Positions 1,642 through 54,538 of a stretch of DNA of 64,000 nucleotides are shown here, one piece after another (position 1 is the stretch's first letter; every line of letters starts with the position of its first letter). The DNA is taken from NCBI GenBank assembly GCA_942490855.1, contig CALNYS010000002.1, forward strand, positions 92,341 to 156,340. The letters run 5' to 3'. Source of the DNA: an uncultured Phycisphaeraceae bacterium. Its GTDB lineage: Bacteria > Planctomycetota > Phycisphaerae > Phycisphaerales > UBA1924. The notes below the pieces were generated by a model, which saw nothing but the letters and a program-made list of their open reading frames with translations, did not search any database and was not told the origin of the DNA. Made by a program: the position numbers and the translations under genes.

Positions 1642-2460
1642 TTAGAAGCAGGGCCCCCACGCGGCGAGCATGATCGCCAGGTCGCTGGAGGTGACGCGCC
1701 CGTCGCCGTCGAGGTCGGCGTTGCAGGCGCCGCGGACGACGCGGAGGGTGTTGGAGGCGCCGGGCTCGGGGCTGCCGTCGCCGTCCTGGTCCCAGGAGTA
1801 GATGATGTCAAAGAAGGAATCGAAGGTCGCGCCGCCGCCGCGGGCGAGTTCGATGCGGTTGACGCGGACCTCGATGGTCTGGGTGACGCCGGGCTGGAGG
1901 ATCATCGGCTCGATGGTCTCGACCTCGAAGACCCCCTGCGGCATCGCCTGGGCGCGGGGCGCCCACTGCACGGGCTGATCGGACGAGTTCGTCGCCGACA
2001 GCGAGAGGTTGACGGTGCGCGGGTTGTCCACCACGACGACGGGCGTCCCGGGCGTCGCCTTGACGTCGCCGGTGTGCCGGATGGAGCCCTGGCACTTCAT
2101 GATCCCGCCGGTGGTCGTGTTCTCGAGCACGGCGGTAAAGAGCACCGTCTCGCCCACTGCCCCCGGGTCGCAGAGAATGGTGACGGGGATGTCGACGCAC
2201 TGCCCGGGCTGGAGCGTGACCATGCCCTGGGAGGGCATCGCGGTGACCTGGTCCTTGATGAAGAACCACGTGTAGTCGCTGGTCACGTCGGTGCAGTTGC
2301 AGATCGTCAGGACGACGTTGGCGGTGCCCATCGTCTCGCACCCGGGGACCGGGCAGCACGGGACGTCCCAGCTGAGGTGACAGCTGTCCGCGTTCGCCAC
2401 ACCGACGGACCCGAGGACGGACGCCACACCAACGCAGATCATGTGCATCAAGTTACGCAT
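1642..2460 (-). CDS. Secreted Cys-rich protein with a single C-terminal dockerin-like repeat
   Basis: The ATG at 2460 gives the signal peptide MRNLMHMICVGVASVLGSVGVANA. A Cys-rich stretch follows (CHLSWDVPCCPVPGCE). The C-terminus is NADLDGDGRVTSSDLAIMLAAWGPCF. Confidence 0.75.
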   Translation of the reverse strand: MRNLMHMICVGVASVLGSVGVANADSCHLSWDVPCCPVPGCETMGTANVVLTICNCTDVTSDYTWFFIKDQVTAMPSQGMVTLQPGQCVDIPVTILCDPGAVGETVLFTAVLENTTTGGIMKCQGSIRHTGDVKATPGTPVVVVDNPRTVNLSLSATNSSDQPVQWAPRAQAMPQGVFEVETIEPMILQPGVTQTIEVRVNRIELARGGGATFDSFFDIIYSWDQDGDGSPEPGASNTLRVVRGACNADLDGDGRVTSSDLAIMLAAWGPCF

Positions 2461-2854
2461 CGCAATACTCCTTTTTTCTTCGAAAGAAAAGAACGAAAGC
2501 ACAAGGCATCGAACACTCAACGCTACACGCGTCGATTCCCGACGCCGCATCGACCCTACCGCAATCGGCGCCCTCTGACAAGCATGAAAAGAGTTATGCG
2601 CCCCGTGCTGCACCATGCGCGCCCGCGCGCCGCGGCGCGACGGCGCGGCTCGTCCCCGTCCCCTTGCGCCCGCGGCGCACGGGCGGTAGTGCGCACGAAA
2701 CCCGGGCCCGGGCAACGTCCGAGAGCCCACCGACAGCGGGGCGCGAGGCTCGCCCGATCGCCATATCCGCTCGGACCGGCCCCTTCCACTCGCCCGCCGC
2801 GCGAACGCCGCTTGACGCGTAACGAGCCCCCCTTTCCCGGCCGATACCGCCCTC

Positions 2855-3709
2855 ATGCTGCCGCCCATGCCACACGACGCCACGACGCCACGCGCCCCAT
2901 CCCCTGAGCCGACCGGCTTCGCCCCGATGCTCGCCCAGAGCTCCGGTCGCTACGTCGGCTCGCTCCGCGACGGCGCGCTCTTCGTGCTCGTCGCGATGGT
3001 CATCAACCTGGCCACGACCCTCGGCGCCATCGGCGCGGGCGTCATGCTCGCGATGTCGGCGCCCGCGTCGGGCGAGCTGCCCACCGGGGCCATGGCCATC
3101 GTCGAGATGGCGCAGGCGCTGCTGATGCTCGTGGCCGCGGCCGCCGGGATCATCGGGTGGTGGTGGTTCACGACCCGCGACCCGCAAGAGCACACGTACA
3201 ACGAACCCTCGCGCTCGCGCCCGCTCGTGCGCACCGCGGTGCTCGCGCAGGCCGTGTGCCTGCTCGGAGTGGCGATCAGCCCGTTCGTCATGGGCGCCGC
3301 CGCGCCGGAGCTGTCGCAGGACGCCGCGCTCACCGGCCCGCTGGCGCTCGTCATGGCGCTCGGTCTCGGGGCCGGGCTCGCGATGATCGTGAAGTTCTTC
3401 GCGTCGATGTCGTACCTGCGCTGGATCGCCTCGCGCATCCCCGACGAGACGCTCGAAGAGGGCGCCGCTCGCTTCATGTGGCTGGGCCCGTTCCTGATCG
3501 TGGGCGTCCCGATCCTGGGCGGCGTCATGATGTTCTTCGTGCCGGTGATCATCGGTCTCGGCGTGATCATCGCCCCGCTCATCGCGCTGGTGATGTACTG
3601 GAACCTGATCTTCAAGGCCTGGAAGGGCCTGAGCGAGATCGCTTCTGATCAGCGCGACGAGGCCGAGCTGCTCGCCCAGGCGCGCCGGGACACGAATCTC
3701 GCCGCCTGA
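2855..3709 (+). CDS. Multi-pass membrane protein, paralog of the next gene
   Basis: 284 aa with several hydrophobic helices. It shares GWWWFT(T/Q)..(P)(Q/E)E and a Y(L/I)(R/Q)WIA(S/P)R motif with the 3730..4605 product. Confidence 0.7.
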   Translation: MLPPMPHDATTPRAPSPEPTGFAPMLAQSSGRYVGSLRDGALFVLVAMVINLATTLGAIGAGVMLAMSAPASGELPTGAMAIVEMAQALLMLVAAAAGIIGWWWFTTRDPQEHTYNEPSRSRPLVRTAVLAQAVCLLGVAISPFVMGAAAPELSQDAALTGPLALVMALGLGAGLAMIVKFFASMSYLRWIASRIPDETLEEGAARFMWLGPFLIVGVPILGGVMMFFVPVIIGLGVIIAPLIALVMYWNLIFKAWKGLSEIASDQRDEAELLAQARRDTNLAA

Positions 3710-3729
3710 GTTTTCAGTATCGTTCGTGG

Positions 3730-4605
3730 ATGAACGACGACCCCCAGCACGCTCCGCAGAACTGCGTTCTCTGCGGCTCGGATCTCACGCACGCGCACCC
3801 CGACGCGTGGTGCCCGACGTGCCGTGCGCCGGTGGCGCGTTCGATCCCCGGCGACGCGCTCGAGCACAGCGAGATCGAGCACGTCCGCACGCTGAAGAAC
3901 GGGTGGTTGCTCGTCCTCGCGCAGATCCCCCTCGCGATCGCCACGCTCGGGATCGTGCTGTACCTCGAGTTCACCGGGCAGCTCACACTCGCCGCCGAAC
4001 AGACGATCACGGTGTTCTCGCTCGGGTCGATGCTCCTGTTGCTGCTCGGCTGGTGGTGGTTCACACAGCCGGAGGAGCGGGTGCGCGGCGCGCACGACGC
4101 CGCCAGGATCAGGTCGTGGCTGCGCACGTCGCTCCTGATCAGCACCGCTCTGAGCATCCCCGCGACCATCCTCGACACCTTTCTCTACCCGGGCCTGCTG
4201 AACCAGCCGAGCTCCGCGCCGGTGTGGGCGACGCTGCTGCATCTCGTGCTCAGCCTGCTGTCGGGGCTCGCGGGCTTGTCGTTCGTCTTCGCGGGGTTGA
4301 AGTACATCCAGTGGATCGCCCCGAGGCTGCGGTCGATCACGGCGTTCCTGTACTCGTCCCGCGCGTTCAAGTACACGCTCTGGGCGATCCCCTGCGGCGT
4401 TCTCACCGTCGTCTTCGCCGTCCTCTCGCTCATCCCCGGGCTCGAGTTCTTCGCGCTCCTCACGCTCGCGCCGGCGCTCGCGCTCCTCGGGTTGATGCTC
4501 GCGGTCGGGATCTACCAGCTCGTGCTGCTCGTGGTCGTGTGGCGACGCCTCAGCGCGATCTACAAAGCCAAGCTCGACGCGCAGCTGGCGACCCCAACCT
4601 TCTAA
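3730..4605 (+). CDS. Zinc-ribbon-fused multi-pass membrane protein, paralog of the previous gene
   Basis: 291 aa. The N-terminal CxxC...CxxC (CVLCGSDL..WCPTCRAP) is followed by TM helices and the motifs GWWWFTQPEE and KYIQWIAPR. Confidence 0.7.
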   Translation: MNDDPQHAPQNCVLCGSDLTHAHPDAWCPTCRAPVARSIPGDALEHSEIEHVRTLKNGWLLVLAQIPLAIATLGIVLYLEFTGQLTLAAEQTITVFSLGSMLLLLLGWWWFTQPEERVRGAHDAARIRSWLRTSLLISTALSIPATILDTFLYPGLLNQPSSAPVWATLLHLVLSLLSGLAGLSFVFAGLKYIQWIAPRLRSITAFLYSSRAFKYTLWAIPCGVLTVVFAVLSLIPGLEFFALLTLAPALALLGLMLAVGIYQLVLLVVVWRRLSAIYKAKLDAQLATPTF

Positions 4606-4667: not shown

Positions 4668-5810
4668 TTACAGGTTGCGCACCACCTCGTTCGCCACGTC
4701 GATCGTCGAGTCGCCCTTGCCGCGACCCTTGACGTCGTACGTCGCGACCTTGCCTTCCTTGATGACCTTCGCGATGGCGGCTTCGAGCGCCTGCGCGTGG
4801 TCGGTCTCGTCGAGCCAGTCGAACATGAGCTTGACGGTCAGGAGCATGGCCATCGGGTTGACGACCTTCTGCCCGTCGTACTTGGGCGCCGAGCCGTGGG
4901 TGGGCTCGAAGACGGCGTAGTCGTCGCCGATGTTCGCGGCGCTCGCGAAGCCGAGGCCGCCGACGAGGCCGGCGCAGAGGTCCGAGAGGATGTCGCCGAA
5001 CATGTTCGACGCCACGAGGACCGAGTAGTCCTGCGGGTTCTTGATCATCCACATCATGATGGCGTCGATGTTCGTCTCCCACGCCTCGATGCCCGGGTAG
5101 TCCTTCGCGACCTCGCGGAACGTGCGGGTCATCAGGCCGCCCGTGGCGCGCACGACGTTGGGCTTCTCGGCGAGGCTGACGCTCTTGCGCCCTTCCTTCT
5201 TCGCGAGCTCGAACGCCTGGCGGCAGATCGACTCGCACCCCTGGCGGCTCATGACGCGCGTGGAGATCGCGACGTTCTCGAGGCCCTTGTCGTACCAGCG
5301 CTTCATGCGCGCCGGGTGACCCCACTCGGGGTTGGCGAGCGCGTCGGCGAGCTCCTTGGGCATGGGGTCCCACTCGATGCCGCCGTAGAGGCCCTCGGTG
5401 TTCTCACGGAAGACGACGAGGTCGATGTCGTCGCCCAGCTTGTTGAGCGGGTTGCCGGGGTACGCCTTGCAGGGGCGCATGTTGGTGTGGAGGTTAAAGA
5501 GCTGGCGGAGCTTGACGATCGGGCTGAAGTAGTCGAGCCCGGTGTCCTTGAGCTCGGGCACGAGTTCCTCGGCGGCCTCTTCGCGCGGCTTGGAGGTGAT
5601 GGCGCCGAAGAGCGCGCAGTCCGTCTTCTTGAGGATCTCGATGGTGCGGTCGGGGAGCGGGTTGCCCTCCTTGCACCAGAACTCCCAGCCGATGTCCGCC
5701 GGGACGTACTCCGCGTCGAACTTCATGGCGTCGAGCACGATCTTGGCGGCTTCCATGACGTCGTTGCCGACGCCGTCGCCGGGCATCCAGGCGATGCTGT
5801 ATTTGGACAT
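4668..5810 (-). CDS. Isocitrate/isopropylmalate dehydrogenase family protein (beta-decarboxylating dehydrogenase)
   Basis: The ATG at 5810 gives [18 protein letters not shown].... Family motifs present: [27 protein letters not shown]. Substrate (isocitrate, homoisocitrate, isopropylmalate or tartrate) cannot be assigned by eye. Confidence 0.85.
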
Positions 5811-5931
5811 GTCCCTTGAGACTCCTGCTGGGTGGGGATGCAAAGAAACCCGCGGGATTCCGGCCCGCGGGGGCGTGCAGGATAGCGACCCCGCCCCCCG
5901 GCTCAAGACGTCGCGCCGGACCCCGCGCCGC

Positions 5932-7638
5932 CTAGTCGCACGGGCCCCACGCGGCGAGCATCACCGCGATGTCCGCGGCGTCCACAACCCCGTTCCCGTC
6001 GGTGTCCGCCCCGTTGTCCGAGCCCCAGGAGGCCAGGAGCACCGCGAGATCGCTGGAGTCCACCCAGCCGTCGGCCACGACGTCCCCGACGCACGGGGCG
6101 ATCGCCGCGCGCCCGAAGACCACGTACGCCCCCTCGCCGCGGGAGGAGAGCAGCAGGTCGTCCACCCCGTCGCCGTTGGTGTCGGGCATGAACGCGCCAG
6201 AGAACCCGATCCAGTCCCCGTCGATCCACCTCCCGAGCGTCTCGTCGAGCTGGGTGAGGTCCACGACCCCGCCGGCGCCGAGCGTGTCGCTCCCGTAGAG
6301 CACGTAGCACCGCCCGGGGACCCCGTCGCCGGAGGTGAACCCCGGCGCCCCGAGAAGGAGGTCGGGACGCCCGTCGCCGTTGACGTCGCCGCCGGAATCG
6401 AGCGAGTACCCCAGACCGTCGCCGGGCTCCTCGCCGTCGATCCGGAACCCCTCGCTCGCGATGTCCGCGGCGGACATAGACCCCCCCGCGACCGCGCCCG
6501 CACGCCCGTAGACGACGTACACGCTCCCGGCGCCCTCGCGTCCGCCCGGGTTCGCCCCCCGTGCCGCGATGAGGAGATCGTCGAACCCGTCCTCGTTCAG
6601 GTCAACGTCGCCCGCGATCGCCAGCCCGAGGATGTCGCCCTCGACGCCGGTGGTGAACACAAAGCCGTTGGAGCCGTCGAGATCGCTCGCCGTGATCACG
6701 CCGCCCGTCCCCACGCTCTCGCCGCCGAACACGATGTAGCACGAGCTGAGCCCGTCTTCGATCTGGTTCCCCAGCGCCGGCGCGCCGACCGCGACGTCGT
6801 CGTAGCCGTCGCCGTTGAAGTCGCCGATGCCGCGCACCTCTACGCCCGCGTAGTCGTAGTCGCCCTCGCCGAGAACGACGAGCCCCTGCTGCGCGCTGAG
6901 GTTCGAGAGCTGGACGCTCGCGGGCGACGCCCCGTGCGTGTTGCCGAACACCACGTACGCCTTCCCGGAATCGATCGCCCCGTCGGCGCCGTTGGCCTCG
7001 TGCGCGCCGAGCACGATGTCCGCGTACCCGTCGCCGTTGAAGTCGCCCGCGCTCCTGACGCTGCGCCCGCACAGCTCGTTGCTGAGCTCTCCCTCTACGC
7101 GGTACCCGTTGTGCGGGAGCATGGTGTCGAGGTTGAACATCCCGTTCCCGCCGAACGACACGCGCGAGTACATCACGTAGCAGTAGCCGACGCCGTGGTT
7201 GGTGAAGTTGGGGTTGTACCTCGGCGCCCCGATGAGCAGGTCCGGTCGCCCGTCGCCGTTGATATCCCCCGCGCTCGCCACGGCGCTCCCGCTGTAGACG
7301 AACTCCGACGGGCTGAGCCGCCCGCCGTTGACGCCGTCGGCGTCCTGGAGGCGGATCTCCCCCGACGCCCCGACCCCGACGCCGCCGTACACCACGTGCG
7401 TGTTCCCGCGGTTGGATCGGTCGGTGGCGAACCCGAGAACGAGGTCGCCGAACCCGTCGGTGTTGAAATCAGCGGACGCGACCTCGACGCCGACGAGATC
7501 GCCGTCGGGCGACGGGAGCGGGAGGACGCGGTAGCCCGTCGTGCCGTCGAGCTCGGTAACGAGGGTCCCCGGGCCCAGCTCCGCGCCCGCGAGCGTCTGG
7601 ACCGCGAGCGCAAGGACAACGAAGGATGCGTGGTGCAT
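5932..7638 (-). CDS. Secreted seven-repeat FG-GAP (integrin-alpha-like) propeller protein with C-terminal double dockerin-like module
   Basis: Signal peptide MHHASFVVLALAVQTLAGA. Seven repeats of the type D(F/V)NGDG..D(L/I)..G...YV(V/L)(F/Y)G. The C-terminus is VDSSDLAVLLASWGSDNGADTDGNGVVDAADIAVMLAAWGPCD. Confidence 0.85.
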   Translation of the reverse strand: MHHASFVVLALAVQTLAGAELGPGTLVTELDGTTGYRVLPLPSPDGDLVGVEVASADFNTDGFGDLVLGFATDRSNRGNTHVVYGGVGVGASGEIRLQDADGVNGGRLSPSEFVYSGSAVASAGDINGDGRPDLLIGAPRYNPNFTNHGVGYCYVMYSRVSFGGNGMFNLDTMLPHNGYRVEGELSNELCGRSVRSAGDFNGDGYADIVLGAHEANGADGAIDSGKAYVVFGNTHGASPASVQLSNLSAQQGLVVLGEGDYDYAGVEVRGIGDFNGDGYDDVAVGAPALGNQIEDGLSSCYIVFGGESVGTGGVITASDLDGSNGFVFTTGVEGDILGLAIAGDVDLNEDGFDDLLIAARGANPGGREGAGSVYVVYGRAGAVAGGSMSAADIASEGFRIDGEEPGDGLGYSLDSGGDVNGDGRPDLLLGAPGFTSGDGVPGRCYVLYGSDTLGAGGVVDLTQLDETLGRWIDGDWIGFSGAFMPDTNGDGVDDLLLSSRGEGAYVVFGRAAIAPCVGDVVADGWVDSSDLAVLLASWGSDNGADTDGNGVVDAADIAVMLAAWGPCD

Positions 7639-7685: not shown

Positions 7686-8432
7686 TCAGCCCCAGGCCGC
7701 GAGGAGGATCGCGAGATCCGAGGCGCCGGTGGAACCGTCGTCATCGAGGTCGGCGTCGGGGCCGCCCCACGCGGCGAGCATGATCGCCAGGTCCGCCGAA
7801 TCCACGACGCCGTCGCCGTTGAGATCCGCGGGGGAGCCCGCGGGCACGCCCGTCGCCCGCAGCATGAACGCGCCGGGGAAGATGACGAACTCCGGGTTGT
7901 CCATCCGCGTCCCGAAGGGCGCCGACGCGAGATCATTGATCACGTCGTCGATCTCGGGCGCGTAGAAGAACCACGACCGGTCGCCCGCGGCGTCGGTGTC
8001 CACGCGCATGGGCGTGTCCTCGCCCCCCATCAGGAACGCGTTCGCGCCCACGAAGAACCCGCCCGAGACCTCGGTCGGATCAATCGGAAAATCGACAAAG
8101 ACGTTCCCGCTGGTCCCGTCGTGCAGGAACTCGGCGCTCGTCAGGGCGACCGCGTTGGTCGGGTCGAAATCGTTATCGGGGTCGTCGAGCAGCCAGATGG
8201 TGATCGGCGTGTCGAGGGGGAAGCTGGGGCCGAACGCGACGGAGACAGTCGTGATGACCTCGCCGCCCGCCTCGGCCATGAAGTAGTTGCCCCAGAGCGT
8301 GTCCGGGTCAAACGTGGACGGCGGGCCCTGGTTGGTGTTGGCGACCCCGTCGTCAAGGGTGTACTCGACGGTGGCGGCGTGCGTGAGACCGGCGCAGAGC
8401 AGCGCCCCGACGGCTGGAACGAATGAACGCAT
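7686..8432 (-). CDS. Secreted protein with C-terminal double dockerin-like module
   Basis: Signal peptide MRSFVPAVGALLCAGLTHA. The C-terminus is ADLNGDGVVDSADLAIMLAAWGGPDADLDDDGSTGASDLAILLAAWG. Confidence 0.75.
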   Translation of the reverse strand: MRSFVPAVGALLCAGLTHAATVEYTLDDGVANTNQGPPSTFDPDTLWGNYFMAEAGGEVITTVSVAFGPSFPLDTPITIWLLDDPDNDFDPTNAVALTSAEFLHDGTSGNVFVDFPIDPTEVSGGFFVGANAFLMGGEDTPMRVDTDAAGDRSWFFYAPEIDDVINDLASAPFGTRMDNPEFVIFPGAFMLRATGVPAGSPADLNGDGVVDSADLAIMLAAWGGPDADLDDDGSTGASDLAILLAAWG

Positions 8433-10224: not shown

Positions 10225-12177
10225 TCACCCGCCCGCGGCGAGCTTCCGCTTGACGACGTTCTCGCTGCCGCCGGCCGCGACGAGCTCCTGCGCCGCGGGG
10301 CCCAGCGCCGGGAACCGGAACGTGCGCTCGCCGAGGGTGATCTCCGAGTCCTCGAAGTTCACGACGAGCGTCTCGCCGGGGATCGTCAGCGCGTCCGAGC
10401 CGCCGTTCGCCTCGCGCAGCGCGGCGACGAGGTCGGGGCACACGATGCAGATGAACCCGTTGTTGAACGCGTTGCGGGTGTAGGTGGCGCTGAAGGTCTC
10501 GGCGATCACCAGCTGGATGCCGAAGCTCGCCAGCGCTGTCGCCGCCTGCTCGCGCGACGACCCAGACCCGAAGTTCGCGCCCCCGATAATGATGTCGCCC
10601 GACTGCGCGATCTGCTGGAACGAGGGGTCGTAGTTGAGCATGGCGTACTGGCCCTGCTGCTCGAGCGTGATGTCGTCGCGGTAGGTGACGTCCTTGCCGT
10701 AGATGCCGTCGGTGTTGAGGTTGTCCTGCGGGAGGAAGAGGGATCGCCCCTCCATGCGCGCCGGGAAGCCGTCGATGATGGTGGTCTTCCCCGCCGCCGC
10801 GGCCGGCCGCGGCTGGACGACGCACCCGCCTAGCGAGCCGTCGCCCTCGTCGAGCGCCATCGGGGAGGCGATGTGCCCGCGGATGGCGCTCTCGGCGACC
10901 ACGGCGGGGCTGGCGAGGTAGCACTGGGCGTCGCGGCTGCCCATGCGTCCTTTGAAGTTGCGGTTGGTGGCGCTGATGCCGACCTCGCCGGCTTCGAGCA
11001 GCCCGGTGCCGAGGCCGATGCAGGCGCCGCAGCCGGGCGGGAGGGCGCGGGCGCCGGCGTTGATCAGCACGTCCCAGTCGCCGCTGGCCTTGGCCTTGGC
11101 CTCGACCTCGCTCGACGCGGCGGCGACGTAGAAGTCCACGCCCGTCGCGACGCGTCGCCCGCCGTCTTTGGAGAACACGCGTGCGGCCGCGGCGAAGTCG
11201 GACTCGCGGGCGTTGACGCAGCTCATGAGGTACGCCTTGTTGATGCGCACGTTGCGGGCTTCCATGTCGGACACGCTGGTCATGTCCTTGACGGTGTCGG
11301 GCCCGCTGACGTGGGGCGCGACCTTGGAGAGGTCGAGCGTCAGCTCCTTGGCGTAGTAGGCGTCCTTGTCGGGAGCCCACTCGGCGCGCGCTTCCCACCA
11401 CTCGTTGACGTCCTCGGCGGTGTAGCGGGGTTCGTCGCGGGCGCTGAAGACCGCGGCGCGTTCGAGGAGGAACGCGAGGAGCGTCTCGTCGAAGGGGAAC
11501 ATGCCCGCGAGGGCGCCCCACTCGGTGGTCATGTTGGAGATGGTCAGTCGCTCGTCCATGCTGAGCGTCGCGACGCCGGGGCCGACGAACTCGATGACGC
11601 AGTTGAGCACCTCGTCGTTATTGAAGTGCCCGCACAGGGCGATGATGACGTCCTTGCCCACGGCGCCTTCGCGCAGCTCGCCGGTGAGGGTGACCTTCAC
11701 GACGTCGGGCACCTGCCACCACGTTTCGCCGGTGGCCCAGATGGCGGCGGCGTCGGTGCGCACGACGGGGGTGCCCACGGCCGCGGCGGCGCCGTAGATG
11801 TTCGAGTGGGAATCGGACCCGACCACAAGGGAGCCGGGGGTGACGTAGCCCTCTTCGATCATGACCTGGTGGGCGATGCCGCGCCCGGGCGGGTAGTAGT
11901 CGATCCCGTTGTCGCGGGCGAACTTCTCGATCTTGGCGTACTTGCCGAGGTTCTCGGGGGTGGTGTTCTGGATGTCGTGGTCCATGCCGAAGACGGGCTG
12001 CTTCGGGTCGCGGACTTTGGTCGCGCCGATGGACTGAAACTTGGGGATGACCGCGCCGGTGTTGTCGTGGGTCATCACGTGCTTGGGGCGGATGGCGACG
12101 ATGTCGCCGGAGCGGACGTCGCCGGTGGAACCCACGGCGTAGCGCTGGACGATCTTTTCGATGGAGGTCTGGGGCAT
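10225..12177 (-). CDS. Aconitase-family hydratase with fused large and small subunit domains (homoaconitase / 3-isopropylmalate dehydratase-like)
   Basis: The ATG at 12177 gives MPQTSIEKIVQRY.... Motifs present: VMTHDNTG, GSDSHS, CGACIGLG, ATNRNFKGRMG. A C-terminal swivel (LeuD-like) domain lies in the same ORF. Confidence 0.85.
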   Translation of the reverse strand: MPQTSIEKIVQRYAVGSTGDVRSGDIVAIRPKHVMTHDNTGAVIPKFQSIGATKVRDPKQPVFGMDHDIQNTTPENLGKYAKIEKFARDNGIDYYPPGRGIAHQVMIEEGYVTPGSLVVGSDSHSNIYGAAAAVGTPVVRTDAAAIWATGETWWQVPDVVKVTLTGELREGAVGKDVIIALCGHFNNDEVLNCVIEFVGPGVATLSMDERLTISNMTTEWGALAGMFPFDETLLAFLLERAAVFSARDEPRYTAEDVNEWWEARAEWAPDKDAYYAKELTLDLSKVAPHVSGPDTVKDMTSVSDMEARNVRINKAYLMSCVNARESDFAAAARVFSKDGGRRVATGVDFYVAAASSEVEAKAKASGDWDVLINAGARALPPGCGACIGLGTGLLEAGEVGISATNRNFKGRMGSRDAQCYLASPAVVAESAIRGHIASPMALDEGDGSLGGCVVQPRPAAAAGKTTIIDGFPARMEGRSLFLPQDNLNTDGIYGKDVTYRDDITLEQQGQYAMLNYDPSFQQIAQSGDIIIGGANFGSGSSREQAATALASFGIQLVIAETFSATYTRNAFNNGFICIVCPDLVAALREANGGSDALTIPGETLVVNFEDSEITLGERTFRFPALGPAAQELVAAGGSENVVKRKLAAGG

Positions 12178-12267
12178 GCGAGCAGCGTAGCGGGTCCGGC
12201 CCTTTTCTCCCACGCCACCAGCGCGGGGATACGGGGAACAGCACGGACGCGTGCGCTGTTCAATAGG

Positions 12268-14858: not shown

Positions 14859-15409
14859 CGCTGGATCCCCGCGGCCCATTCGTCGCGCGTGAGTGTGAAG
14901 CCCTCGGCGTCGAAGAACTCGCCGTCTTTTTCGCATTGGTTAGGCAGGACGCCGACGGAGCGCATGCCGATCTTCTCAAGTACGCGAGACGAGGCGGGGT
15001 TTCGCGTCATCGCGTGTGCGCAGAGTTCGGCGAACCCGAGCGTCGCGAAGCCGTAGGCGAGCAGGGCGCTGCAGGCTTCGGTCGCGTAGCCCCTCCCCCA
15101 CCACGGGCGCCCGACGACGTAGCCGAACTCGGCCTCGTCGCGCCCCTTGATGTTGAGGAAGCCGATCGATCCGATGAGCGTGCTCGTTTCGCTGAGATCG
15201 ATGAGGAGGGTCAGCGCGTCGCCGGCGGCGCGGAGGCGTTCGAAACGCGCGATTGCTTCGGCGGCGTCCGCTTCGGTGTAGGGGTAAGGGATTGAGCGGG
15301 TGAAGGCGGCGATGTCGCGGTCGGAGAAGACGGCGGGCATCGCGGGGATGTCCGCCTCGCTCGGGGCGCGGAGGACGAGGCGCTCGGTCTCGAGTCGGGG
15401 GAGGTTCAT
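14855..15409 (-). CDS. GNAT family N-acetyltransferase (RimJ/RimL-like)
   Basis: The ATG at 15409 gives MNLPRLETERLVLRAPSEADIPAM.... It contains the motif GYVVGRPWWGRGYATEA. A 4-nt overlap joins it to the lyase-like gene upstream. Confidence 0.85.
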   Translation of the reverse strand: MNLPRLETERLVLRAPSEADIPAMPAVFSDRDIAAFTRSIPYPYTEADAAEAIARFERLRAAGDALTLLIDLSETSTLIGSIGFLNIKGRDEAEFGYVVGRPWWGRGYATEACSALLAYGFATLGFAELCAHAMTRNPASSRVLEKIGMRSVGVLPNQCEKDGEFFDAEGFTLTRDEWAAGIQR

Positions 15410-16170
15410 TGGTTGAGCGTGCGGTCGGCGGGGCCGTCGTACTCGTGGGCGCCGGGGATGACGCGGCGCATGGGCTTCATGCGTTCGCGTTCTTCGGTGG
15501 CGTGGGCGACGAGGCCGGGGACGCGGGCGATCATGAAGAGGCCGTTCATGACGGAGGGGTCGAAGCCGAGGTCGGCGAGGATGGCGCCGATCGCGCCGTC
15601 GACGTTGATGGGCAGGGCCTTGCCGCTGGCGGCGAATGCGGATTCGACGGCGCGGGCGGCGGCGACGTGGGGGCCGGTCGCGCCGGCTTCCTCGGCGAGC
15701 TCGAACAAGCGCGCCGTGCGCGGGTCGGCGGTGTGGATGCGGTGCCCGAAGCCGCTCATGCGTTCGCCGCGGGTTTTCATGTCGGCGAGCTCGGCGTTGG
15801 CGGCCTCGCTGAGGTCGCCGCCGCGGGCGATGATCGCGCCGAGCTGGCGGGCGCACTTCTCGATGGCGCCGCCGTGGAAGTTGTTGATGGAGAGGATGCC
15901 GGCGCTGACGGCCTGGGAGAGCGAGGCGCCGGTGGAGGCCACGGTGCGGGCGGAGAGGACGCTGGGGGGCGTGGCGCCGTGGTCGATGCTGGAGACGACG
16001 ATGGCGTCCATCAGCTTGCCGACAGGTTCGCTGGGCATTTCACCGCGGAGGATGAGGTAGACGGCGGCGCCGAAGGAGACGCGTCCCATGAGGTCGGCGA
16101 TGTCGTAGCCGCGGACGCGGACCTCGTTGGGTCGGATGTTGGTGATGGCGGTGGGCCAGGTGTCGGGCAT
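15406..16170 (-). CDS. Short citrate-synthase-fold protein, citryl-CoA lyase-like
   Basis: 254 aa and lacks the large N-terminal citrate synthase domain. It contains the citrate synthase family signature MSGFGHRIHTADPR and later the catalytic-region motif ARVPGLVAH. Confidence 0.75.
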   Translation of the reverse strand: MPDTWPTAITNIRPNEVRVRGYDIADLMGRVSFGAAVYLILRGEMPSEPVGKLMDAIVVSSIDHGATPPSVLSARTVASTGASLSQAVSAGILSINNFHGGAIEKCARQLGAIIARGGDLSEAANAELADMKTRGERMSGFGHRIHTADPRTARLFELAEEAGATGPHVAAARAVESAFAASGKALPINVDGAIGAILADLGFDPSVMNGLFMIARVPGLVAHATEERERMKPMRRVIPGAHEYDGPADRTLNQ

Positions 16171-16242
16171 GGGTGTGCTCTGTCGTGTGTCAGCGGGGGA
16201 AACGCGGCGCTAGAAATACGCTTGAAAATCAGAGGAATACGG

Positions 16243-16284
16243 AGCCCTCACCCCGGCCCTCTCCCCGGGGGAGAGGGGGCGGAT
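16243..16284. repeat. REP-like palindromic intergenic element, copy 3
   Basis: AGCCCTCACCCCGGCCCTCTCCCCGGGGGAGAGGGGGCGGAT, nearly identical to copies 1 and 2. It lies in the 116-nt gap between the CoA-ligase alpha gene and the lyase-like gene. Confidence 0.8.
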
Positions 16285-16286
16285 TC

Positions 16287-18763: not shown

Positions 18764-18835
18764 GCCGGTCTCCTCTCCAGCGGGCGCTGGCCCGCGGATC
18801 GGCGATGGTAGTGCCCCCCTATTGGCCCGCAAGAC

Positions 18836-30346: not shown

Positions 30347-30401
30347 CGTGCGCGCACCGCGCCGAGTTCGCGCGCACAATGAACGAAACACGGAGGCGAG
30401 C

Positions 30402-32393
<1,992 letters not shown>

Positions 32394-40975: not shown

Positions 40976-40978
40976 CCC

Positions 40979-43435
<2,457 letters not shown>

Positions 43436-43491: not shown

Positions 43492-44178
43492 TCAGTTCGC
43501 CTCGGGGAGGCTCAGTCGCACGGTCACGGGCGTGCCGAGCTCGGGCGTGCGCAGGGGGTCGGCGATCCACACGGGCTCCTCGATCGCCGAGTCGTGGCTG
43601 TAGAGGGCCGGGTAGGCGAGGACCTCGGAGCCGAAGGTCGTCAGCCCGATCAGGACGCCCGTCCCGTCGGCGTCGTACACCTCGCCCGCGCCGCGGTCGA
43701 CGAACCGCGAGCCGGCGAAGACCCACGCCTGGTCCTCGAGATGCCCGTCCCCGTCGTCGCGGGCCACCCACGCCGCGGCCGGCGTCGCGACGCCATCGAC
43801 CACGAACTCGACGATCACCGCGGGACCGTGCGCCGGGAACCCGCGGACGGAGTCGCCGAACTCGCGCCACCCGCCCGGCGCCCCGGGCTCGAGCCCCAGC
43901 GCCAAGAGAGCGGCGTGCACGTGCGCGGGGCGCGCGTCGGTGACGACGAGCGCCTCGTGCTCTTTCGAGTCGCGCGCGCACACCATGACCTCGAGGAACG
44001 CGACCGTGCCGTCGCCGGCGTCGGCCTTGATGGGCACCTCGCCGTCGAACTCGACAGTCCGCGCCTCGGCGTCGAGGCGCACGCCCGGGAACATCTCGAC
44101 GGGATCGGCGGCGCAGGCCGAAACGACAACCGCCGCGATCGTCAAAGCAATCGCGGCGGCGTGGTTGTTCAATTGCAT
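43492..44178 (-). CDS. Secreted hypothetical protein (possibly YdjY-domain-like)
   Basis: Signal/lipoprotein-like N-terminus MQLNNHAAAIALTIAAVVVSAC. The segment EVMVCARDSKEHEALVVTDARPAHVHAALLALGLEPG recalls the YdjY-type domain. This is a recollection and has not been verified. Confidence 0.55.
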   Translation of the reverse strand: MQLNNHAAAIALTIAAVVVSACAADPVEMFPGVRLDAEARTVEFDGEVPIKADAGDGTVAFLEVMVCARDSKEHEALVVTDARPAHVHAALLALGLEPGAPGGWREFGDSVRGFPAHGPAVIVEFVVDGVATPAAAWVARDDGDGHLEDQAWVFAGSRFVDRGAGEVYDADGTGVLIGLTTFGSEVLAYPALYSHDSAIEEPVWIADPLRTPELGTPVTVRLSLPEAN

Positions 44179-49529: not shown

Positions 49530-50000
49530 ATGTCAGAGATCATCATCCCGGGGGGCGGCGGCGGGGACAGCGCCGACGACGCACCCAAGATTCACGTTGA
49601 CAGCGACTGGAAGGCCGAGGCCCAGGCCGAGAGGGACCGCCTCGACGCCGAGGCCGAGGAGAAAACCGCGGCCTCGGGCGGCGGCGCGGGCGGCATGCCC
49701 CCCGCCAACTTCCAGACCCTCTGGAGCGAGCTCGCCTCGCAGGCCTACGTCTTCCTCGGCGCGATCCCCGACCCCAAAACGGGGCAGGCGATCGTCGCGC
49801 CCGAGTACGCGAAGCACTACATCGATCTCCTCGGCGTCCTCAGCGAGAAGACCGAGGGCAACCTGAGCGCCGAGGAATCCGACGAGTTCCAGAAGGTCCT
49901 CGTCGAACTCCGACAGGTCTTCGTCCGCGTCGCGGGCTATGTCGCGTCCGAGATGGCCAAGCAGGACGCCGCGGGCGAACAGCCGGCGCCGGACGCCTGA
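49530..50000 (+). CDS. DUF1844 domain protein
   Basis: FQTLWSELASQAYVFLGAIPDPKTGQAIVAPEYAKHYIDLLGVLSEKTEGNLSAEESDEFQKVLVELRQVF matches the DUF1844 pattern as I recall it. Confidence 0.7.
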   Translation: MSEIIIPGGGGGDSADDAPKIHVDSDWKAEAQAERDRLDAEAEEKTAASGGGAGGMPPANFQTLWSELASQAYVFLGAIPDPKTGQAIVAPEYAKHYIDLLGVLSEKTEGNLSAEESDEFQKVLVELRQVFVRVAGYVASEMAKQDAAGEQPAPDA

Positions 50001-50073
50001 CGAACCCGGCCTGATCGGGCCGATAGACCTCTATCTTCCCGCCCATCGACTCACTCGTGAAGGGGACCGACCC

Positions 50074-50874
50074 GTGAGCGATTCCTCGTCCTTCCTGGAC
50101 AAGCACCATTTCCTGCTCCGCCGACTGCACTCGCTCGCCGGCGTGATTCCCATCGGCGTCTTCCTCATCATGCACCTGACGACCAACTCGTCGGTGGTGT
50201 GGGCCGAGGCCTTCGGGCGCGACGGCGCCGAGACGTTCCAGCACGAAGTCAACTTCATCCACTCCATGCCCGGGCTGATCCTGATCGAGGTCTTCGGGCT
50301 GTGGCTGCCGATCTTCTTCCACTCGATCTTCGGCTTCTACTACGCCTTCTCCGGGCGCTCCAACGCCGCGTCGTACCCCTACGGGGGCAGCTGGCGCTAC
50401 AGCCTCCAGCGCTGGACCGGCTACGTCGGCTTCCTCTTCATCCTGTTCCACGTCGCGACGCTGCGCTGGGGGTGGGATTTCCTCCCCTTCTCGTCGGGCT
50501 TTGACGCGCACTCGGCGGCGTCCACCACGGCGCTGTCGCTCCGCGGCGGTCCCGACGCGAGCGTGCTCGGCGGGATCTTCAACATGGTCCTGTACCTCGG
50601 CGGCGTCACCGCGCTCGTCTACCACTTCGCCAACGGGCTCTGGACCTGGGCGATCACCTGGGGCATCACCGTCTCACCGCAGGCGCAGAAGCGCTGGGGC
50701 TACGTGTGCGCCGCGGTCGGCTTCGGGCTCCTCGGCGCCGGCTGGAGCGCGTACTTCGGGTTCGTCGCGCTCGACATCGAAGCCGCGCAGCAGACCGAGC
50801 TCCGCATGCGGGCGCCCGGGCACGCCGAGGCTGAACCTCTCTCCAGCAGCCCCCTTCTCAGCGAGGAGCACTGA
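50074..50874 (+). CDS. sdhC: Succinate dehydrogenase/fumarate reductase cytochrome b558 subunit (type B, five-helix)
   Basis: The GTG at 50074 (after GAAGGGGA) gives (M)SDSSSFLDKHHFLLRRLHSLAGVIPIGVFLIMHLTTN, which closely resembles the Bacillus-type SdhC N-terminus. The upstream part of ORF 49939.. overlaps the DUF1844 gene. Confidence 0.85.
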   Translation: MSDSSSFLDKHHFLLRRLHSLAGVIPIGVFLIMHLTTNSSVVWAEAFGRDGAETFQHEVNFIHSMPGLILIEVFGLWLPIFFHSIFGFYYAFSGRSNAASYPYGGSWRYSLQRWTGYVGFLFILFHVATLRWGWDFLPFSSGFDAHSAASTTALSLRGGPDASVLGGIFNMVLYLGGVTALVYHFANGLWTWAITWGITVSPQAQKRWGYVCAAVGFGLLGAGWSAYFGFVALDIEAAQQTELRMRAPGHAEAEPLSSSPLLSEEH

Positions 50875-50877
50875 CCT

Positions 50878-52833
50878 ATGCCGCTGCCCCCCAACCACGA
50901 CAAGCGTGTGATCGTCGTCGGCGGCGGACTCGCGGGCCTCGCCGCCTGCGTCCGCCTCGCCGAGCAGGGCGTCCCCGTCGACCTCTTCTCCATGGTCCCC
51001 GTCAAGCGCTCGCACTCCGTATGCGCGCAGGGCGGGATCAACGCCTGCAACGACATCGCCCGTCAGCAGGGCTACTCCGAGTGGGAGCACATGGACGAGA
51101 CGCTCTACGGCGGGGACTACCTCGCCGACCAGCCTCCCGTCTACGAGATGACCCACTGGGCGCCGCGGATCATCAACCTCCTCGACCGCATGGGCGTGCC
51201 CTTCAACCGCACCATGGAAGGGCAGCGCGACCTGCGCCTCTTCGGCGGTTCGCTCTTTAAGCGCACGCACTTCTCGGGCGCGACGACCGGGCAGCAGCTC
51301 ATGTACGCCCTCGACGAGCAGGTGCGCCGCGCCGAGGCCGAGGGCAAGGTCACCAAGTACGAGTTCTGGGAGTTCCTCTCCCCGATCCTCGAGGACGGGA
51401 CGTGCGTGGGCATCGTCGCCCAGGACATGCGCACGATGCAGATCCGCGCGTTCCGCGGCGACGCCGTCGTGATGGCGACCGGCGGCTGCGGGCTCGTGTT
51501 CGGCAAGTCCACCAACTCCGTTGTCTGCACCGGCGCCGCGGCCGCGCGCTGCTACCGCCACGGCGCGTGGTACGGCAACCCGGAGTTCATCCAGGTCCAC
51601 CCGACCGCCATCCCCGGCGCCGACAAGTGCCGCCTGATGAGCGAGTCCGCCCGCGGCGAGGGCGGGCGCGTGTGGGTCCCCCGCAAGAAGGGCGACACCC
51701 GCGACCCGCGTCAGATCCCCGCCGAGGAACGCTACTACCTCCTCGAGGAGCGCTACCCCAAGTACGGCAACCTCGTGCCGCGCGACATCGCGTCGCGCGA
51801 GATCTTCGACGTGTGCGTCAACGACCACATGGGCGTTGGCGGCGAGAACCAGGTCTACCTCGACCTGACGCACAAATCCAAGGAAGAGCTCGACCGCAAG
51901 CTGGGCGGCATCCTTGAGATCTACGAGAAGTTCGCCGGCGAGGACCCCCGCGTCCTCCCCATGAAGATCTTCCCCGCGGTCCACTACTCCATGGGCGGGC
52001 TGTGGACGACGTTCACCGCCGAGGACCGCCCCGCCGACCCGATGATGGACAAGGCCGCCATCGCGAAGGGCCACGACACCGTCCGCGGGATGGAGTACGG
52101 GGCGCCCAACACGATGAGCACCAACATCCCCGGGCTGTACGCGCTGGGCGAGGTGAACTTCGCGTTCCACGGCGCGACGCGCCTGGGCGCCAACGCGCTC
52201 CTCTCGTGCATCTTCGACGGGCTCTTCGCGGGCATGGGCATCACGAACTACGTCGCCGACGAGGCCCCCGCCGCGACCGAGGTCGCCCAGGGCGTGTACG
52301 ACTCCGCGGTCGAACGCGAGGAGAAGATCGTTGACGACCTCGTCGGTGAGAACCGCGCCCCGGCCGCCAACGACGACAACGCCTACAAAATCGCCAAGGA
52401 GCTGGGCGTCGAGATGACCGCGGCTTCCACCGTGGTCAAGACCGGCCCGCGCCTCCGCGAGTGCCTCACGAAGATCGACGAGTACAAGGAACGGTTCGAG
52501 AAGGTCCGCCTCGCCGACAGCGAGATGTGGACCAACCAGAACCTCAGCTTCAGCCGGAGCGTCCGCGACATGCTCGTGATCGCCGAGGCGATCGCCAAGG
52601 GCGGCGAGCTCCGCGAGGAGTCCCGCGGTTCTCACTACCGGACCGATTTCCTCGAGCGCAACGACGAGAAGTTCATGAAGACCACCGTCGCCGCGTTCAA
52701 CCCCGAGACGGGACGGCCCGACATCAGCTACCGAGAGGTCGTCACCGGCCTCGTCCAGCCCCGTGCCCGCACCTACGGCAAGACCGACGCCCCCGTCGAT
52801 GAGAAGAAGGAGGCCGCCGCGAGCGCGTCGTAA
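50878..52833 (+). CDS. sdhA: Succinate dehydrogenase/fumarate reductase flavoprotein subunit
   Basis: VIVVGGGLAGLAA, the covalent-FAD site RSHSVCAQGGI, HPTAIPG, ARGEGGR, HYSMGGL, SRGSHYR. Confidence 0.93.
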   Translation: MPLPPNHDKRVIVVGGGLAGLAACVRLAEQGVPVDLFSMVPVKRSHSVCAQGGINACNDIARQQGYSEWEHMDETLYGGDYLADQPPVYEMTHWAPRIINLLDRMGVPFNRTMEGQRDLRLFGGSLFKRTHFSGATTGQQLMYALDEQVRRAEAEGKVTKYEFWEFLSPILEDGTCVGIVAQDMRTMQIRAFRGDAVVMATGGCGLVFGKSTNSVVCTGAAAARCYRHGAWYGNPEFIQVHPTAIPGADKCRLMSESARGEGGRVWVPRKKGDTRDPRQIPAEERYYLLEERYPKYGNLVPRDIASREIFDVCVNDHMGVGGENQVYLDLTHKSKEELDRKLGGILEIYEKFAGEDPRVLPMKIFPAVHYSMGGLWTTFTAEDRPADPMMDKAAIAKGHDTVRGMEYGAPNTMSTNIPGLYALGEVNFAFHGATRLGANALLSCIFDGLFAGMGITNYVADEAPAATEVAQGVYDSAVEREEKIVDDLVGENRAPAANDDNAYKIAKELGVEMTAASTVVKTGPRLRECLTKIDEYKERFEKVRLADSEMWTNQNLSFSRSVRDMLVIAEAIAKGGELREESRGSHYRTDFLERNDEKFMKTTVAAFNPETGRPDISYREVVTGLVQPRARTYGKTDAPVDEKKEAAASAS

Positions 52834-52854
52834 GACGCCCGCACGGATTTCATC

Positions 52855-53682
52855 ATGGTTGCAGAGAACTCCAAAGCGTCCCTCACCCCCGGCGCCAAGC
52901 GCACCGTCCGCCTCAAGATCAAACGCTGCAAGGGCCCCGGCAAGCCCTCCTACTGGGAGACGTTCAACGTCCCCGTCAGCGCGGGCGAGGGCGCCAACAT
53001 CATCAGCGCCCTCCAGCACGTCGCCGCCAACCCCGTCACCGTCGATGGCAACGCGACCACCCCCGTCGTCTGGGACTCCGGCTGCCTCGAAGAGGTCTGC
53101 GGCGCCTGCACCATGGTCGTCAACGGCAAGGTCCGCCAGTCCTGCTCGGCGCTCCTGGACACCATCGCTCCCACCGACGGCGACACCGTCACACTCGAGC
53201 CGATGAGCAAGTTCCCCGTCAACCGCGACCTCTTCGTCGACCGCCAGCGCATGTTCGACACGCTCAAGCGCCTCAAGGCGTGGGTCCCCATCGACGGCCT
53301 CTACGAGCTCGGCAAGGGCCCCACCGAGTCGCCCACCCAGCAGGAAGAACGCTACGTCTACTCCACCTGCATGACCTGCGGCTGCTGCCTCGAGGCCTGC
53401 CCCCAGTTCCAGAAGGAAGACGACCCCGCGAAGTGGGCCGAGTCCTTCGTCGGCGCCAACGCCATGGGACAGGCCCAGCTCTTCAACATGCACGAGACCG
53501 GCGCCCGTCTCAAGGGCGACCGCCTCGACGAGATGTCACGCAAGGGCGGCGTCTCCGACTGCGGCAACGCCCAGAACTGCGTCAAGGTCTGCCCCAAGGA
53601 GATCCCGCTCTCCCAGGCCATCGCCTCCCTCGGGCGCGCCGTCACGATCCACGGCGTCAAGAGCTTCTTCACGGGCAAGTAA
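52855..53682 (+). CDS. sdhB: Succinate dehydrogenase/fumarate reductase iron-sulfur subunit
   Basis: Three Cys clusters: CLEEVCGACTMVVNG, CMTCGCCLEACP, CGNAQNCVKVCP. Confidence 0.92.
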   Translation: MVAENSKASLTPGAKRTVRLKIKRCKGPGKPSYWETFNVPVSAGEGANIISALQHVAANPVTVDGNATTPVVWDSGCLEEVCGACTMVVNGKVRQSCSALLDTIAPTDGDTVTLEPMSKFPVNRDLFVDRQRMFDTLKRLKAWVPIDGLYELGKGPTESPTQQEERYVYSTCMTCGCCLEACPQFQKEDDPAKWAESFVGANAMGQAQLFNMHETGARLKGDRLDEMSRKGGVSDCGNAQNCVKVCPKEIPLSQAIASLGRAVTIHGVKSFFTGK

Positions 53683-53706
53683 GCCCGACATCAAACGATC
53701 CCACCC

Positions 53707-53739
53707 ACGCCCCGAGCGCGCATCGCCCGGGGCGTTTTT
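53707..53739 (+). terminator. Rho-independent terminator after sdhB
   Basis: Stem ACGCCCCG/CGGGGCGT, followed by TTTTT. Confidence 0.8.
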
Positions 53740-53749
53740 CATGCGCGGT

Positions 53750-54538
53750 TTACCCGGCGCACGACCCCCACGCCGCGAGCAGGATCGCCAGGTCGCCCGA
53801 CAGCGTGTCGCCGTCGCCATCGAGGTCGGCGCCGTTGGTTTCCCACGCCGCCAGCAGCGACGCGAGGTCCGACGAGTCGGTCACGCCGTCAGCGTTGAAG
53901 TCCGTCGGGCACGGGACGATCAGCAGGTTCTCCCGGATCCACGCGATCGCGTCCTGCTGCTCGGCCTCCGCCGCCGGGAGATCCCCCGACGTCGGCTCCC
54001 AGCGGTAGACAAAGTAGAACTCTTCCGAGTCCTCCAGCGTCGCGCTCGAGAACCGGAACGTCCCGAGGTAGATCCCCGGCTGCTGATCGATCACGAGGAA
54101 GTGGTCGGCGTGATTGTGCACGTCGCCGAACTCCGTCGCGTTCATCAGCGGGCCCGTGACGACGACGCCCTCGCTCGTCGGCGACTGCGCCGTCTGGTTG
54201 TTGTGCTCGATCTCCAGGTAGTGCGCCGGGTCCACGTCGTCGAACCCGTCGCCGTTCCACAGCTTGAGCGGCGCGGCGAGATCGAGCGAGAAGACCGTGA
54301 ACGCGGGGAGGGCTCCGAGCGCCGCGTTGAAACCGGGGTCGTCGGTGACGATGTTCCCGAAGAAGGAGATCGGGTCGGCGTCGAACACGCGCTCGGGGAC
54401 GACCATCCCCCCCTCCCCGACGCGGTTGGTCGTCAGGCGCCCCTCGTGCGTGTCGAGGATGACGTCGAGGTCGTGCAGCGTGCCCGCGGACGCCGGGCCG
54501 GCGATGAAGAGGACGAACACGAGACGGATGGTGCGCAT
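53750..54538 (-). CDS. Secreted protein, paralog of the next gene, with C-terminal double dockerin-like module
   Basis: The ATG at 54538 gives MRTIRLVFVLFIAGPASAG (the track ORF begins two codons earlier at a TTG). The C-terminus is VPCPTDFNADGVTDSSDLASLLAAWETNGADLDGDGDTLSGDLAILLAAWGSCAG. Confidence 0.75.
   Translation of the reverse strand: MRTIRLVFVLFIAGPASAGTLHDLDVILDTHEGRLTTNRVGEGGMVVPERVFDADPISFFGNIVTDDPGFNAALGALPAFTVFSLDLAAPLKLWNGDGFDDVDPAHYLEIEHNNQTAQSPTSEGVVVTGPLMNATEFGDVHNHADHFLVIDQQPGIYLGTFRFSSATLEDSEEFYFVYRWEPTSGDLPAAEAEQQDAIAWIRENLLIVPCPTDFNADGVTDSSDLASLLAAWETNGADLDGDGDTLSGDLAILLAAWGSCAG

Follow-up and report, generated by a model that had tools for sequence, protein, structure and literature searches.

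Introduction

The type I dockerins of cellulosomes (PF00404; for example 2Y3N chain B, 1DAQ and 4FL4) consist of two tandem D-x-[DN]-x-D-G loops, each followed by a helix, and usually stand at the C-terminus of secreted enzymes. They are clostridial or ruminococcal and are carried by cellulases. Here, we describe a module with the same two loop-plus-helix segments at the C-terminus of nine secreted proteins encoded in a 64,000-nucleotide stretch of contig CALNYS010000002.1 (positions 92,341 to 156,340; assembly GCA_942490855.1; hereafter the window) of an uncultured Phycisphaeraceae bacterium, that is, in a Gram-negative-type planctomycete and on propellers, a dehydrogenase and a protease. In our reading, to which we assign a probability of roughly 0.6, the nine tails are compact type I dockerins that act as calcium-loop tags at the extreme C-terminus of Sec-exported proteins and would dock them on a surface receptor.

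Dockerin-like modules are among the commonest domains of secreted planctomycete proteins, and their role outside cellulosomes is unproven. Peer et al. reportedly found, in 2009, many dockerin modules in genomes with few or no recognised cohesins, and non-cellulosomal dockerins are said to have been described since. A curated family, NCBIfam NF041540 (dockerin_GC, 'GC-type dockerin domain-anchored protein'), already treats the dockerin as an anchor in its name, as our reading does; its model has 67 positions whereas the tails of the window cover about 50 residues, so that the archetype has a longer linker. In freshwater Phycisphaerae, cohesin- and dockerin-bearing proteins, including dockerin-tagged M12B reprolysin-like peptidases, have been described, and a 'planctosome', a non-cellulosomal cohesin-dockerin assembly at the outer membrane, has been proposed (Andrei et al, 2019; PMC6461901). 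This is the closest published model: it comes from the same bacterial class, and its dockerin-bearing M12B peptidase is matched here by the protein encoded at 36256..37929. The planctosome, however, rests on cohesin-carrying anchor and adaptor proteins, whereas only a 64-kb window was scanned here, and the tag that we describe is found on a much wider range of passengers, being carried by 9 of roughly 58 genes (about one in six).

Two other kinds of C-terminal tail, the type A C-terminal domain of the type IX secretion system (T9SS; TIGR04183) and PEP-CTERM (TIGR02595), occupy the same slot on the same passenger family of Sec-exported proteins, but they have no likeness in sequence or architecture to the dockerin tail, which also occurs internally. 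Given PF00404, NF041540 and the planctosome proposal, the module is of a kind already known and not a new type of system. What we add is that two cysteines covary, that the linker is short and that T9SS and PEP-CTERM-like tails take the place of the module on homologous passengers, none of which we found in the searchable literature; our searches also returned nothing on 'GC-type dockerin' and nothing relevant on dockerin, disulfide and Planctomycetes in combination.

Results

Nine secreted proteins end in one or two loop-plus-helix repeats

A six-frame regular-expression scan of the window revealed 16 loop-plus-helix repeats, all of them within nine open reading frames (ORFs) that contain no internal stops, and a degenerate 17th repeat was recognised in the ORF at 5932..7638. 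Two tandem segments of about 22 residues, each a predicted calcium loop (Asp/Asn at positions 1, 3, 5 and 12) followed by a helix, are present in eight tails and one segment in the ninth, and in all nine the last repeat ends 1-5 residues ahead of the stop codon. A hidden Markov model (HMM) built from the alignment of the eight double tails scored 78-90 bits on these modules and 39 bits on the single repeat, while no further ORF in any of the six frames of the window reached 12 bits. Eight of the nine ORFs lie on the minus strand:

1642..2460, minus strand: Cys-rich/immunoglobulin (Ig)-like secreted protein, 272 amino acids (aa); single Cys-bracketed repeat at 1645..1725 (C-NA-DLDGDGRVTSSDLAIMLAAWGPC-F); tail HMM 39 bits, Dockerin_1 17.6 bits.
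5932..7638, minus strand: FG-GAP propeller protein, 568 aa; double module at 5935..6093 with Cys at -3 and the end WGPCD; tail HMM 83.8 bits, NF041540 22.7 bits.
7686..8432, minus strand: beta-sandwich passenger resembling lectins or carbohydrate-binding modules (CBMs), 248 aa; double module at 7689..7826, no Cys pair, end WG; tail HMM 78.4 bits.
21494..23224, minus strand: FG-GAP propeller protein, 576 aa; double module at 21497..21640, end WTG; tail HMM 82.4 bits.
25322..26677, minus strand: GSDH-family (pyrroloquinoline quinone-type) sugar dehydrogenase, 451 aa; double module at 25325..25480, end WGATG; tail HMM 79.7 bits, GSDH 121 bits, Dockerin_1 26.8 bits.
32459..33733, minus strand: Cys-rich secreted protein, 424 aa; double module at 32462..32620, end WDDGE; tail HMM 77.9 bits, Dockerin_1 23.5 bits.
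36256..37929, plus strand: M12B reprolysin-like metzincin, 557 aa; double module at 37789..37926, end WG; tail HMM 78.6 bits.
40979..43435, minus strand: FG-GAP_3 (VCBS-type) repeat protein, 818 aa; double module at 40982..41140 with Cys at -3 and the end WGACP; tail HMM 90.3 bits.
53750..54538, minus strand: secreted protein without a Pfam or NCBIfam match, 262 aa; double module at 53753..53911 with Cys at -3 and the end WGSCAG; tail HMM 84.0 bits.

Judged by eye, all nine N-termini have a basic residue, a hydrophobic stretch and an A-x-A-like site, and so resemble Sec signal peptides. Pfam assigned FG-GAP repeats to the passengers of 5932, 21494 and 40979, GSDH to that of 25322 and an M12B metzincin to that of 36256. 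No Pfam family exceeded its curated cut-off for the passengers of 1642, 7686, 32459 and 53750, the first of which gave only a sub-threshold match to MOV-10 Ig-like. An earlier note on this DNA, made from the sequence alone, had proposed that nine unrelated proteins, all with signal peptides, end in such repeats close to the stop codon, and each of these points is borne out. Its account of the passengers agrees with the Pfam assignments, save that its 'VCBS giant' turned out to be the 818-aa FG-GAP_3 protein. Its count of one or two repeats per tail stands with the proviso that a single repeat is found only in 1642..2460, and the terminal Cys that it called frequent is present, as a W-G-x-C end, in only 4/9 tails.

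The tail is a compact type I dockerin by profile and predicted fold

We compared the tail profile with all solved structures. The best match was 2y3n_B, the Cel48 dockerin of Bacteroides cellulosolvens (E = 3e-9), followed by the Clostridium thermocellum dockerins 4fl4_A and 1daq_A, and 17 of the best 18 matches were either dockerin-bearing chains by name or the 8x39/8x3a serine proteases, matched over the same region of the profile. In agreement with this, the AlphaFold2 model of the 58-aa tail of 5932..7638 (mean pLDDT 90) contains two helices, H18-26 and H44-52, each after a loop, and its best PDB match by Foldseek was again 2y3n_B (TM 0.84, root-mean-square deviation 1.4 Å). A canonical calmodulin-like EF-hand pair was considered and rejected, as both helices of the model exit from a loop, none entering one, and calmodulin-type EF-hands matched the model with a TM of only about 0.3. 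By profile and predicted fold, the module is thus a compact homologue of type I dockerins. The earlier note was right in calling the tail dockerin-like; its view of the tail as a tag and not a classical dockerin is not upheld, since both lines of evidence lead to type I dockerins.

Curated models gave a more mixed picture. Pfam Dockerin_1 (PF00404; gathering threshold 22.9 bits) matched 7/9 proteins, of which only two were above the threshold (26.8 and 23.5 bits) and five below it (17.2-22.0 bits), and the remaining two gave no match. NF041540 was the sole specialised NCBIfam model to match the tails; it did so in 5/9 proteins (20.5-25.3 bits), with no match in the other 4/9, and its cut-off of 29 bits was not reached by any tail of the window. 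Close database relatives scored 35-323 bits with Dockerin_1, and relatives ending in WGPCP were above the NF041540 cut-off (P0074, with 70 bits, P0103, P0026, P0042 and P0142).

The tails depart from cellulosomal dockerins between the two repeats, where the first-loop Asp residues are 25-29 residues apart, compared with 32-33 in 2Y3N_B and 1DAQ, and no linker helix is predicted. The helix positions S/A-x-D-L-A-I-L-L-A-A-W are conserved across the nine unrelated proteins; at these positions clostridial dockerins have their cohesin-recognition residues. Such sharing of helix positions fits one shared, specific ligand surface. Recent duplication as the origin of the nine tails was rejected, as they are only 38-54% identical to one another and the tails of orthologues are, by eye, closer to each other; judged on their sequences, the tails look vertically inherited.

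A pair of cysteines brackets a subset of the modules

The four tails with a W-G-x-C end (1642, 5932, 40979 and 53750) all have a Cys exactly three residues ahead of the first loop Asp (head motifs C-N-A-D, C-V-G-D, C-P-P-D and C-P-T-D), and the remaining five tails have neither the head nor the terminal Cys. The same association was seen in a census of 725 repeats taken from 150 representatives of the tail-profile search. In these repeats, Cys was present at -3 from the first Asp in 28%, a sharp peak with 2-3% at the adjoining positions, and at +3 after the Trp in 20%; almost everywhere else in the flanks its frequency was about 2-8%. In double units without a linker Cys, the two Cys, head and tail, co-occurred strongly (odds ratio 34, p = 8e-21). 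Among the double-module tails of the 7686 family, 16 had both Cys and 7 had neither, and the sole tail of that family with a terminal but no head Cys was the single-repeat P0171. In a syntenic locus of a relative (L084, described below) the Cys status of the tails was unchanged, and the orthologue of 40979..43435 there has the Cys bracket.

To be stable and to bind cohesin, dockerins need an intramolecular clasp that joins residues -1 to -3 to C-terminal residues (Slutzki et al, 2013; PMC3821032). A clasp between the N- and C-terminal ends of the module would be common to cellulosomal dockerins and to the tails described here; there it is made by stacking or by a salt bridge, and here apparently by Cys-Cys. 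From the covariation and by analogy with these dockerins, we infer that the Cys pair is probably a disulfide version of the known clasp. In the model of the 5932..7638 tail, DSSP paired residues 15-16 of the first loop with residues 55-56 (the G-P that precedes the last Cys) in a bridge, which is consistent with a predicted fold in which the tail turns back on the start of the module. A disulfide clasp would explain why the protein stops right there. Where the earlier note had taken the terminal Cys as one sign of a sorting or anchoring tag, we found that it covaries with the Cys three residues before the first calcium loop and so looks like one half of a structural pair; on account of this pairing, we rejected it as a lipidation or sorting mark.

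Single-repeat 'half dockerins' were also observed. The repeat at 1645..1725 (minus strand) in 1642..2460 is Cys-bracketed on both sides, P0171 has the terminal Cys only, and P0026 contains four single Cys-bracketed repeats in succession; a unit of one repeat and its Cys pair may fold by itself.

The dockerin tail fills an anchor slot on the passenger of 7686..8432

A search with 7686..8432 returned 223 homologues at E ≤ 0.001, and 102 of the best 120 could be classified by what follows the passenger, the end of which is marked by a conserved ...PGAFM(V/I)RA motif. In 48 of these the motif is followed by a tail of at least 55 aa, which, where checked, proved to be the type A sorting domain of the T9SS (40 bits with TIGR04183, cut-off 23) in proteins that belong to Bacteroidota by their NCBI names. 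A dockerin tail was found in 18 (24 when sequences in which the end motif failed are counted), and a tail with P-x-P, a hydrophobic stretch and RRRR in 13-14; the best of the latter reached 14.8 bits against the 16-bit cut-off of TIGR02595, and we therefore call them PEP-CTERM-like only. In the other 22 the passenger stops within 12 residues of the motif, without any tail. Homologues with these alternative tails are 43-69% identical, and the dockerin and PEP-CTERM-like versions are both present in Phycisphaerales (P0183, P0254). Since one and the same passenger is followed by a T9SS, a PEP-CTERM-like, a dockerin or no tail, the dockerin fills an anchor slot. The role that the earlier note gave the tail is hence supported, the slot being one that recognised surface-anchoring or sorting domains occupy in other lineages; its idea that the tail is anything other than a dockerin is not.

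The passenger itself, a beta-sandwich of roughly 180 aa without a Pfam or NCBIfam family, behaves like an uncatalogued 'choice-of-anchor' domain; its listed homologues (P0169-P0288) are labelled Phycisphaerales/Planctomycetota, Bacteroidota, Rubricoccaceae and Dokdonella.

None of the nine window proteins matched the T9SS C-terminal domain (TIGR04183), a beta-sandwich of about 70-80 aa, in the NCBIfam scan, and the hydrophobic stretch or Arg cluster of the tripartite PEP-CTERM signal was found in 0/9 tails. Two other proteins of the window, at 29202..30287 (plus strand) and 19709..20452 (minus strand), have signal peptides and end in a PEP-CTERM-like manner (...VPAPGSVALFGVAGFAAARRRR and ...LPAPGPIALFGLAGALGFQRRR, respectively), with no NCBIfam match to these tails at E ≤ 0.01. 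Their presence besides the dockerin tails suggests that the organism uses at least two kinds of C-terminal tag.

The tail is conserved in relatives and C-terminal in this lineage

For the metzincin 36256..37929, the tail was kept in 12/12 orthologues of 50-80% identity; in 11 of these WG, WGS or WD stands at the C-terminus or no more than one residue from it, and the twelfth ends in WSN. In a relative at 68% identity, the syntenic 21.7-kb locus L084 contains three tails, two on orthologous genes and the third on the likely counterpart of 32459..33733, which has the same neighbourhood, a similar length and a dockerin tail. From these comparisons of sequences, the tail is evidently under constraint. 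A contig scan with the neighbouring isocitrate dehydrogenase as query provided 80 background loci, which we searched with the tail HMM. Some 30-odd of these, other than L084 and labelled Phycisphaerae or Planctomycetota, contained only about ten dockerin-like tails, and none was found in the loci of other phyla. The sub-lineage of the window is therefore enriched in such tails.

An exhaustive HMMER comparison of the tail profile with 1.84 billion representative proteins gave 47,692 clusters at E ≤ 0.001, of which 6,040 were at E ≤ 1e-10; the placement and tail data that follow for this wider family come from the best 150 of the 47,692 cluster representatives. Many of them share the C-terminus ...WG[PSA]C[PE], and others have tandem modules, one protein containing as many as 15 matched stretches. 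Of 149 top representatives, 78 have over 8 aa between the last repeat and the end of the protein, in a sample that favours multi-module proteins and contains fragments. In P0032, P0122, P0139, P0077 and P0111, five of ten inspected representatives that had been chosen for basic C-terminal residues, the dockerin directly precedes a PEP-CTERM-like tail (VPEP, hydrophobic stretch, RRR), and it is therefore not itself the sorting signal there. Within the lineage of the window, placement was C-terminal throughout, in 9/9 tails of the window, 3/3 of L084 and all 24 dockerin-tailed homologues of 7686 (23 of these tails end 0-4 residues from the C-terminus and one 9). Strict C-terminal placement, as claimed in the earlier note, is thus a property of this lineage, whereas internal or tandem modules are frequent in the wider family. 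That note had also held that internal modules as frequent as C-terminal ones would speak against its proposal; the 78/149 above go part of the way towards this, in a biased sample.

Discussion

A proposed surface-docking tag and the explanations that compete with it

In the mechanism that we propose, the module would, after export of the protein through Sec, bind Ca2+ and fold with its N- and C-termini in contact. A disulfide from the -3 Cys to the terminal Cys would lock the two ends together in the W-G-x-C variants. Once folded, the module would attach, without a covalent bond, to a cognate receptor; a cohesin-type module carried by a cell-surface scaffold is the most plausible candidate, and docking there would keep varied enzymes and adhesin-like propellers at the cell surface.

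Several observations weigh against this proposal. Most Pfam and all NCBIfam dockerin scores of the window proteins are under the curated cut-offs. The repeat spacing is shorter than in the two clostridial dockerins, and the AlphaFold2 model lacks the linker helix, so that the binding surface may differ from that of characterised dockerins. Pfam detected no cohesin in about 55 proteins of the window, a scan of 64 kb that cannot speak for the genome, and none in six long multi-dockerin representatives, all of which scored strongly on Dockerin_1. The claim of the earlier note that the window has no cohesin-like partner therefore stands for what Pfam recognises in it and says nothing about the rest of the genome. 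The passenger of 7686..8432 was considered as a cohesin and rejected: its AlphaFold2 model (pLDDT 89.9) gave weak PDB matches (TM 0.3-0.47) to lectin, CBM and jelly-roll folds and no cohesin match. As for the clasp, the tails of 21494 and 25322 each have one extra unpaired Cys (in a loop and in the linker, respectively), and the covariation of the two Cys, computed from related sequences, does not amount to a determined structure.

The short linker, the missing third helix and the failure to find a cohesin in the window proteins, the six multi-dockerin relatives or the fold of the 7686 passenger would all suit a module that has no protein partner and instead stabilises proteins or binds a matrix in a Ca-dependent manner (for example an acidic exopolysaccharide or a cell-wall glycan), keeping proteins near the cell; so would the very wide distribution of dockerin-like modules over 47,692 representative clusters and their reported presence in genomes where cohesins are few or not recognised. 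We consider this possible but rather unlikely, because the helix positions kept in nine unrelated proteins suggest one specific ligand surface and because cohesins have been reported in Phycisphaerae alongside dockerin-bearing M12B peptidases (PMC6461901). It is also doubtful, and slightly more so, that Phycisphaerales use the compact, disulfide-clasped dockerin as a general C-terminal surface-display tag, a functional counterpart of the T9SS C-terminal domain and of PEP-CTERM, with a receptor that is not a recognisable cohesin; if true, this would be an anchoring system outside cellulosomes that is spread over the whole lineage. Less probable again is that the tail is a true C-terminal sorting signal, read and perhaps cleaved by dedicated machinery, with the terminal Cys as a processing or attachment site. 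In this lineage the tail stands at the C-terminus throughout, 0-5 residues from the stop, and on homologous passengers it takes the place of a T9SS sorting domain or a PEP-CTERM-like tail; this, together with the lack of a cohesin among the window proteins, is what one would expect of such a signal. However, where the PEP-CTERM-like proteins of the window itself show a motif, a hydrophobic helix and a basic cluster, the tail has none of these; it is a predicted folded Ca-loop domain homologous to dockerins; in other organisms the module is internal, in tandem or placed right before a PEP-CTERM-like tail; and the terminal Cys is found in only 4/9 tails, always with the -3 Cys. Finally, a compositional or chance artefact of high G+C content (69%) and of Asp/Gly/Ala/Leu-rich C-termini, which would draw on the G+C content and nothing else, was discarded as practically inconceivable in view of HMM scores of 78-90 bits that no other frame or ORF of the window approaches, of tails kept in orthologues at 50-80% identity and of a confidently predicted fold.

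Docking of compact dockerins on a surface receptor is the reading that we prefer. The near-identical putative recognition helices on nine passengers, the Cys pair and the tail swapping make the idea of a surface anchor directly testable, and the tails could serve as bait for finding the receptor.

Genomic setting and further observations in the window

The window, of 66-72% G+C, is part of an ordinary chromosome and not an island. In Pfam scans, the tagged genes were interspersed with those for isocitrate dehydrogenase, aconitase and acetyl-CoA synthetase, and subunits of succinate dehydrogenase/fumarate reductase and ATP-citrate-lyase-like genes also lie between them. Other housekeeping genes of the window encode DapF, FtsJ, Dus and an M50 peptidase (by Pfam) and the ribosomal proteins S16 and L19, TrmD and IspF, which were recognised by reading translations by eye; the L084 counterparts of L19, TrmD and IspF are annotated by Pfam. 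Genes for PhoX and a Ser/Thr kinase and one tRNA are also present. The closest genes to the isocitrate dehydrogenase come from Phycisphaerales/Phycisphaerae metagenome-assembled genomes, at up to 79% identity, and identical copies of the protein encoded at 7686..8432 were found on three metagenome contigs (L001-L003).

The ATP-citrate-lyase-like genes (15406..18832, minus strand) encode ATP-grasp_2/Citrate_bind and CoA_binding/CoA-ligase domains and, in a separate ORF, a citrate-synthase C-terminal domain; the AclA-like part is seemingly split over two ORFs (16287..17294 and 15406..16170). They are near the genes for aconitase (10225..12213), isocitrate dehydrogenase (4668..5906), acetyl-CoA synthetase (30348..32393) and succinate dehydrogenase/fumarate reductase (49939..53682).

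Two neighbouring ORFs on the plus strand, 2855..3709 and 3730..4605, encode multi-pass membrane proteins without a family match that are possibly paralogous, each with a GWWWFT motif after its first hydrophobic segments. The pair is apparently kept beside the isocitrate dehydrogenase gene in the same-species contig L001. Directly downstream of the FG-GAP_3 dockerin gene, and beside rplS, 43492..44178 (minus strand) encodes a YdjY-domain protein (NF040466, 117 bits) with a possible lipoprotein signal, as judged by eye, and the same layout is seen in the 68%-identity relative (L084 17169..17855). Lastly, 56755..57576 (minus strand) encodes a protein of low complexity, nearly all of it G/N/F/P repeats (GFNGGFNPGFN...), without a convincing family match, and adjoins a DUF2946-like ORF and a prepilin-type protein with a GspG-like N-terminus at 55345..56271.

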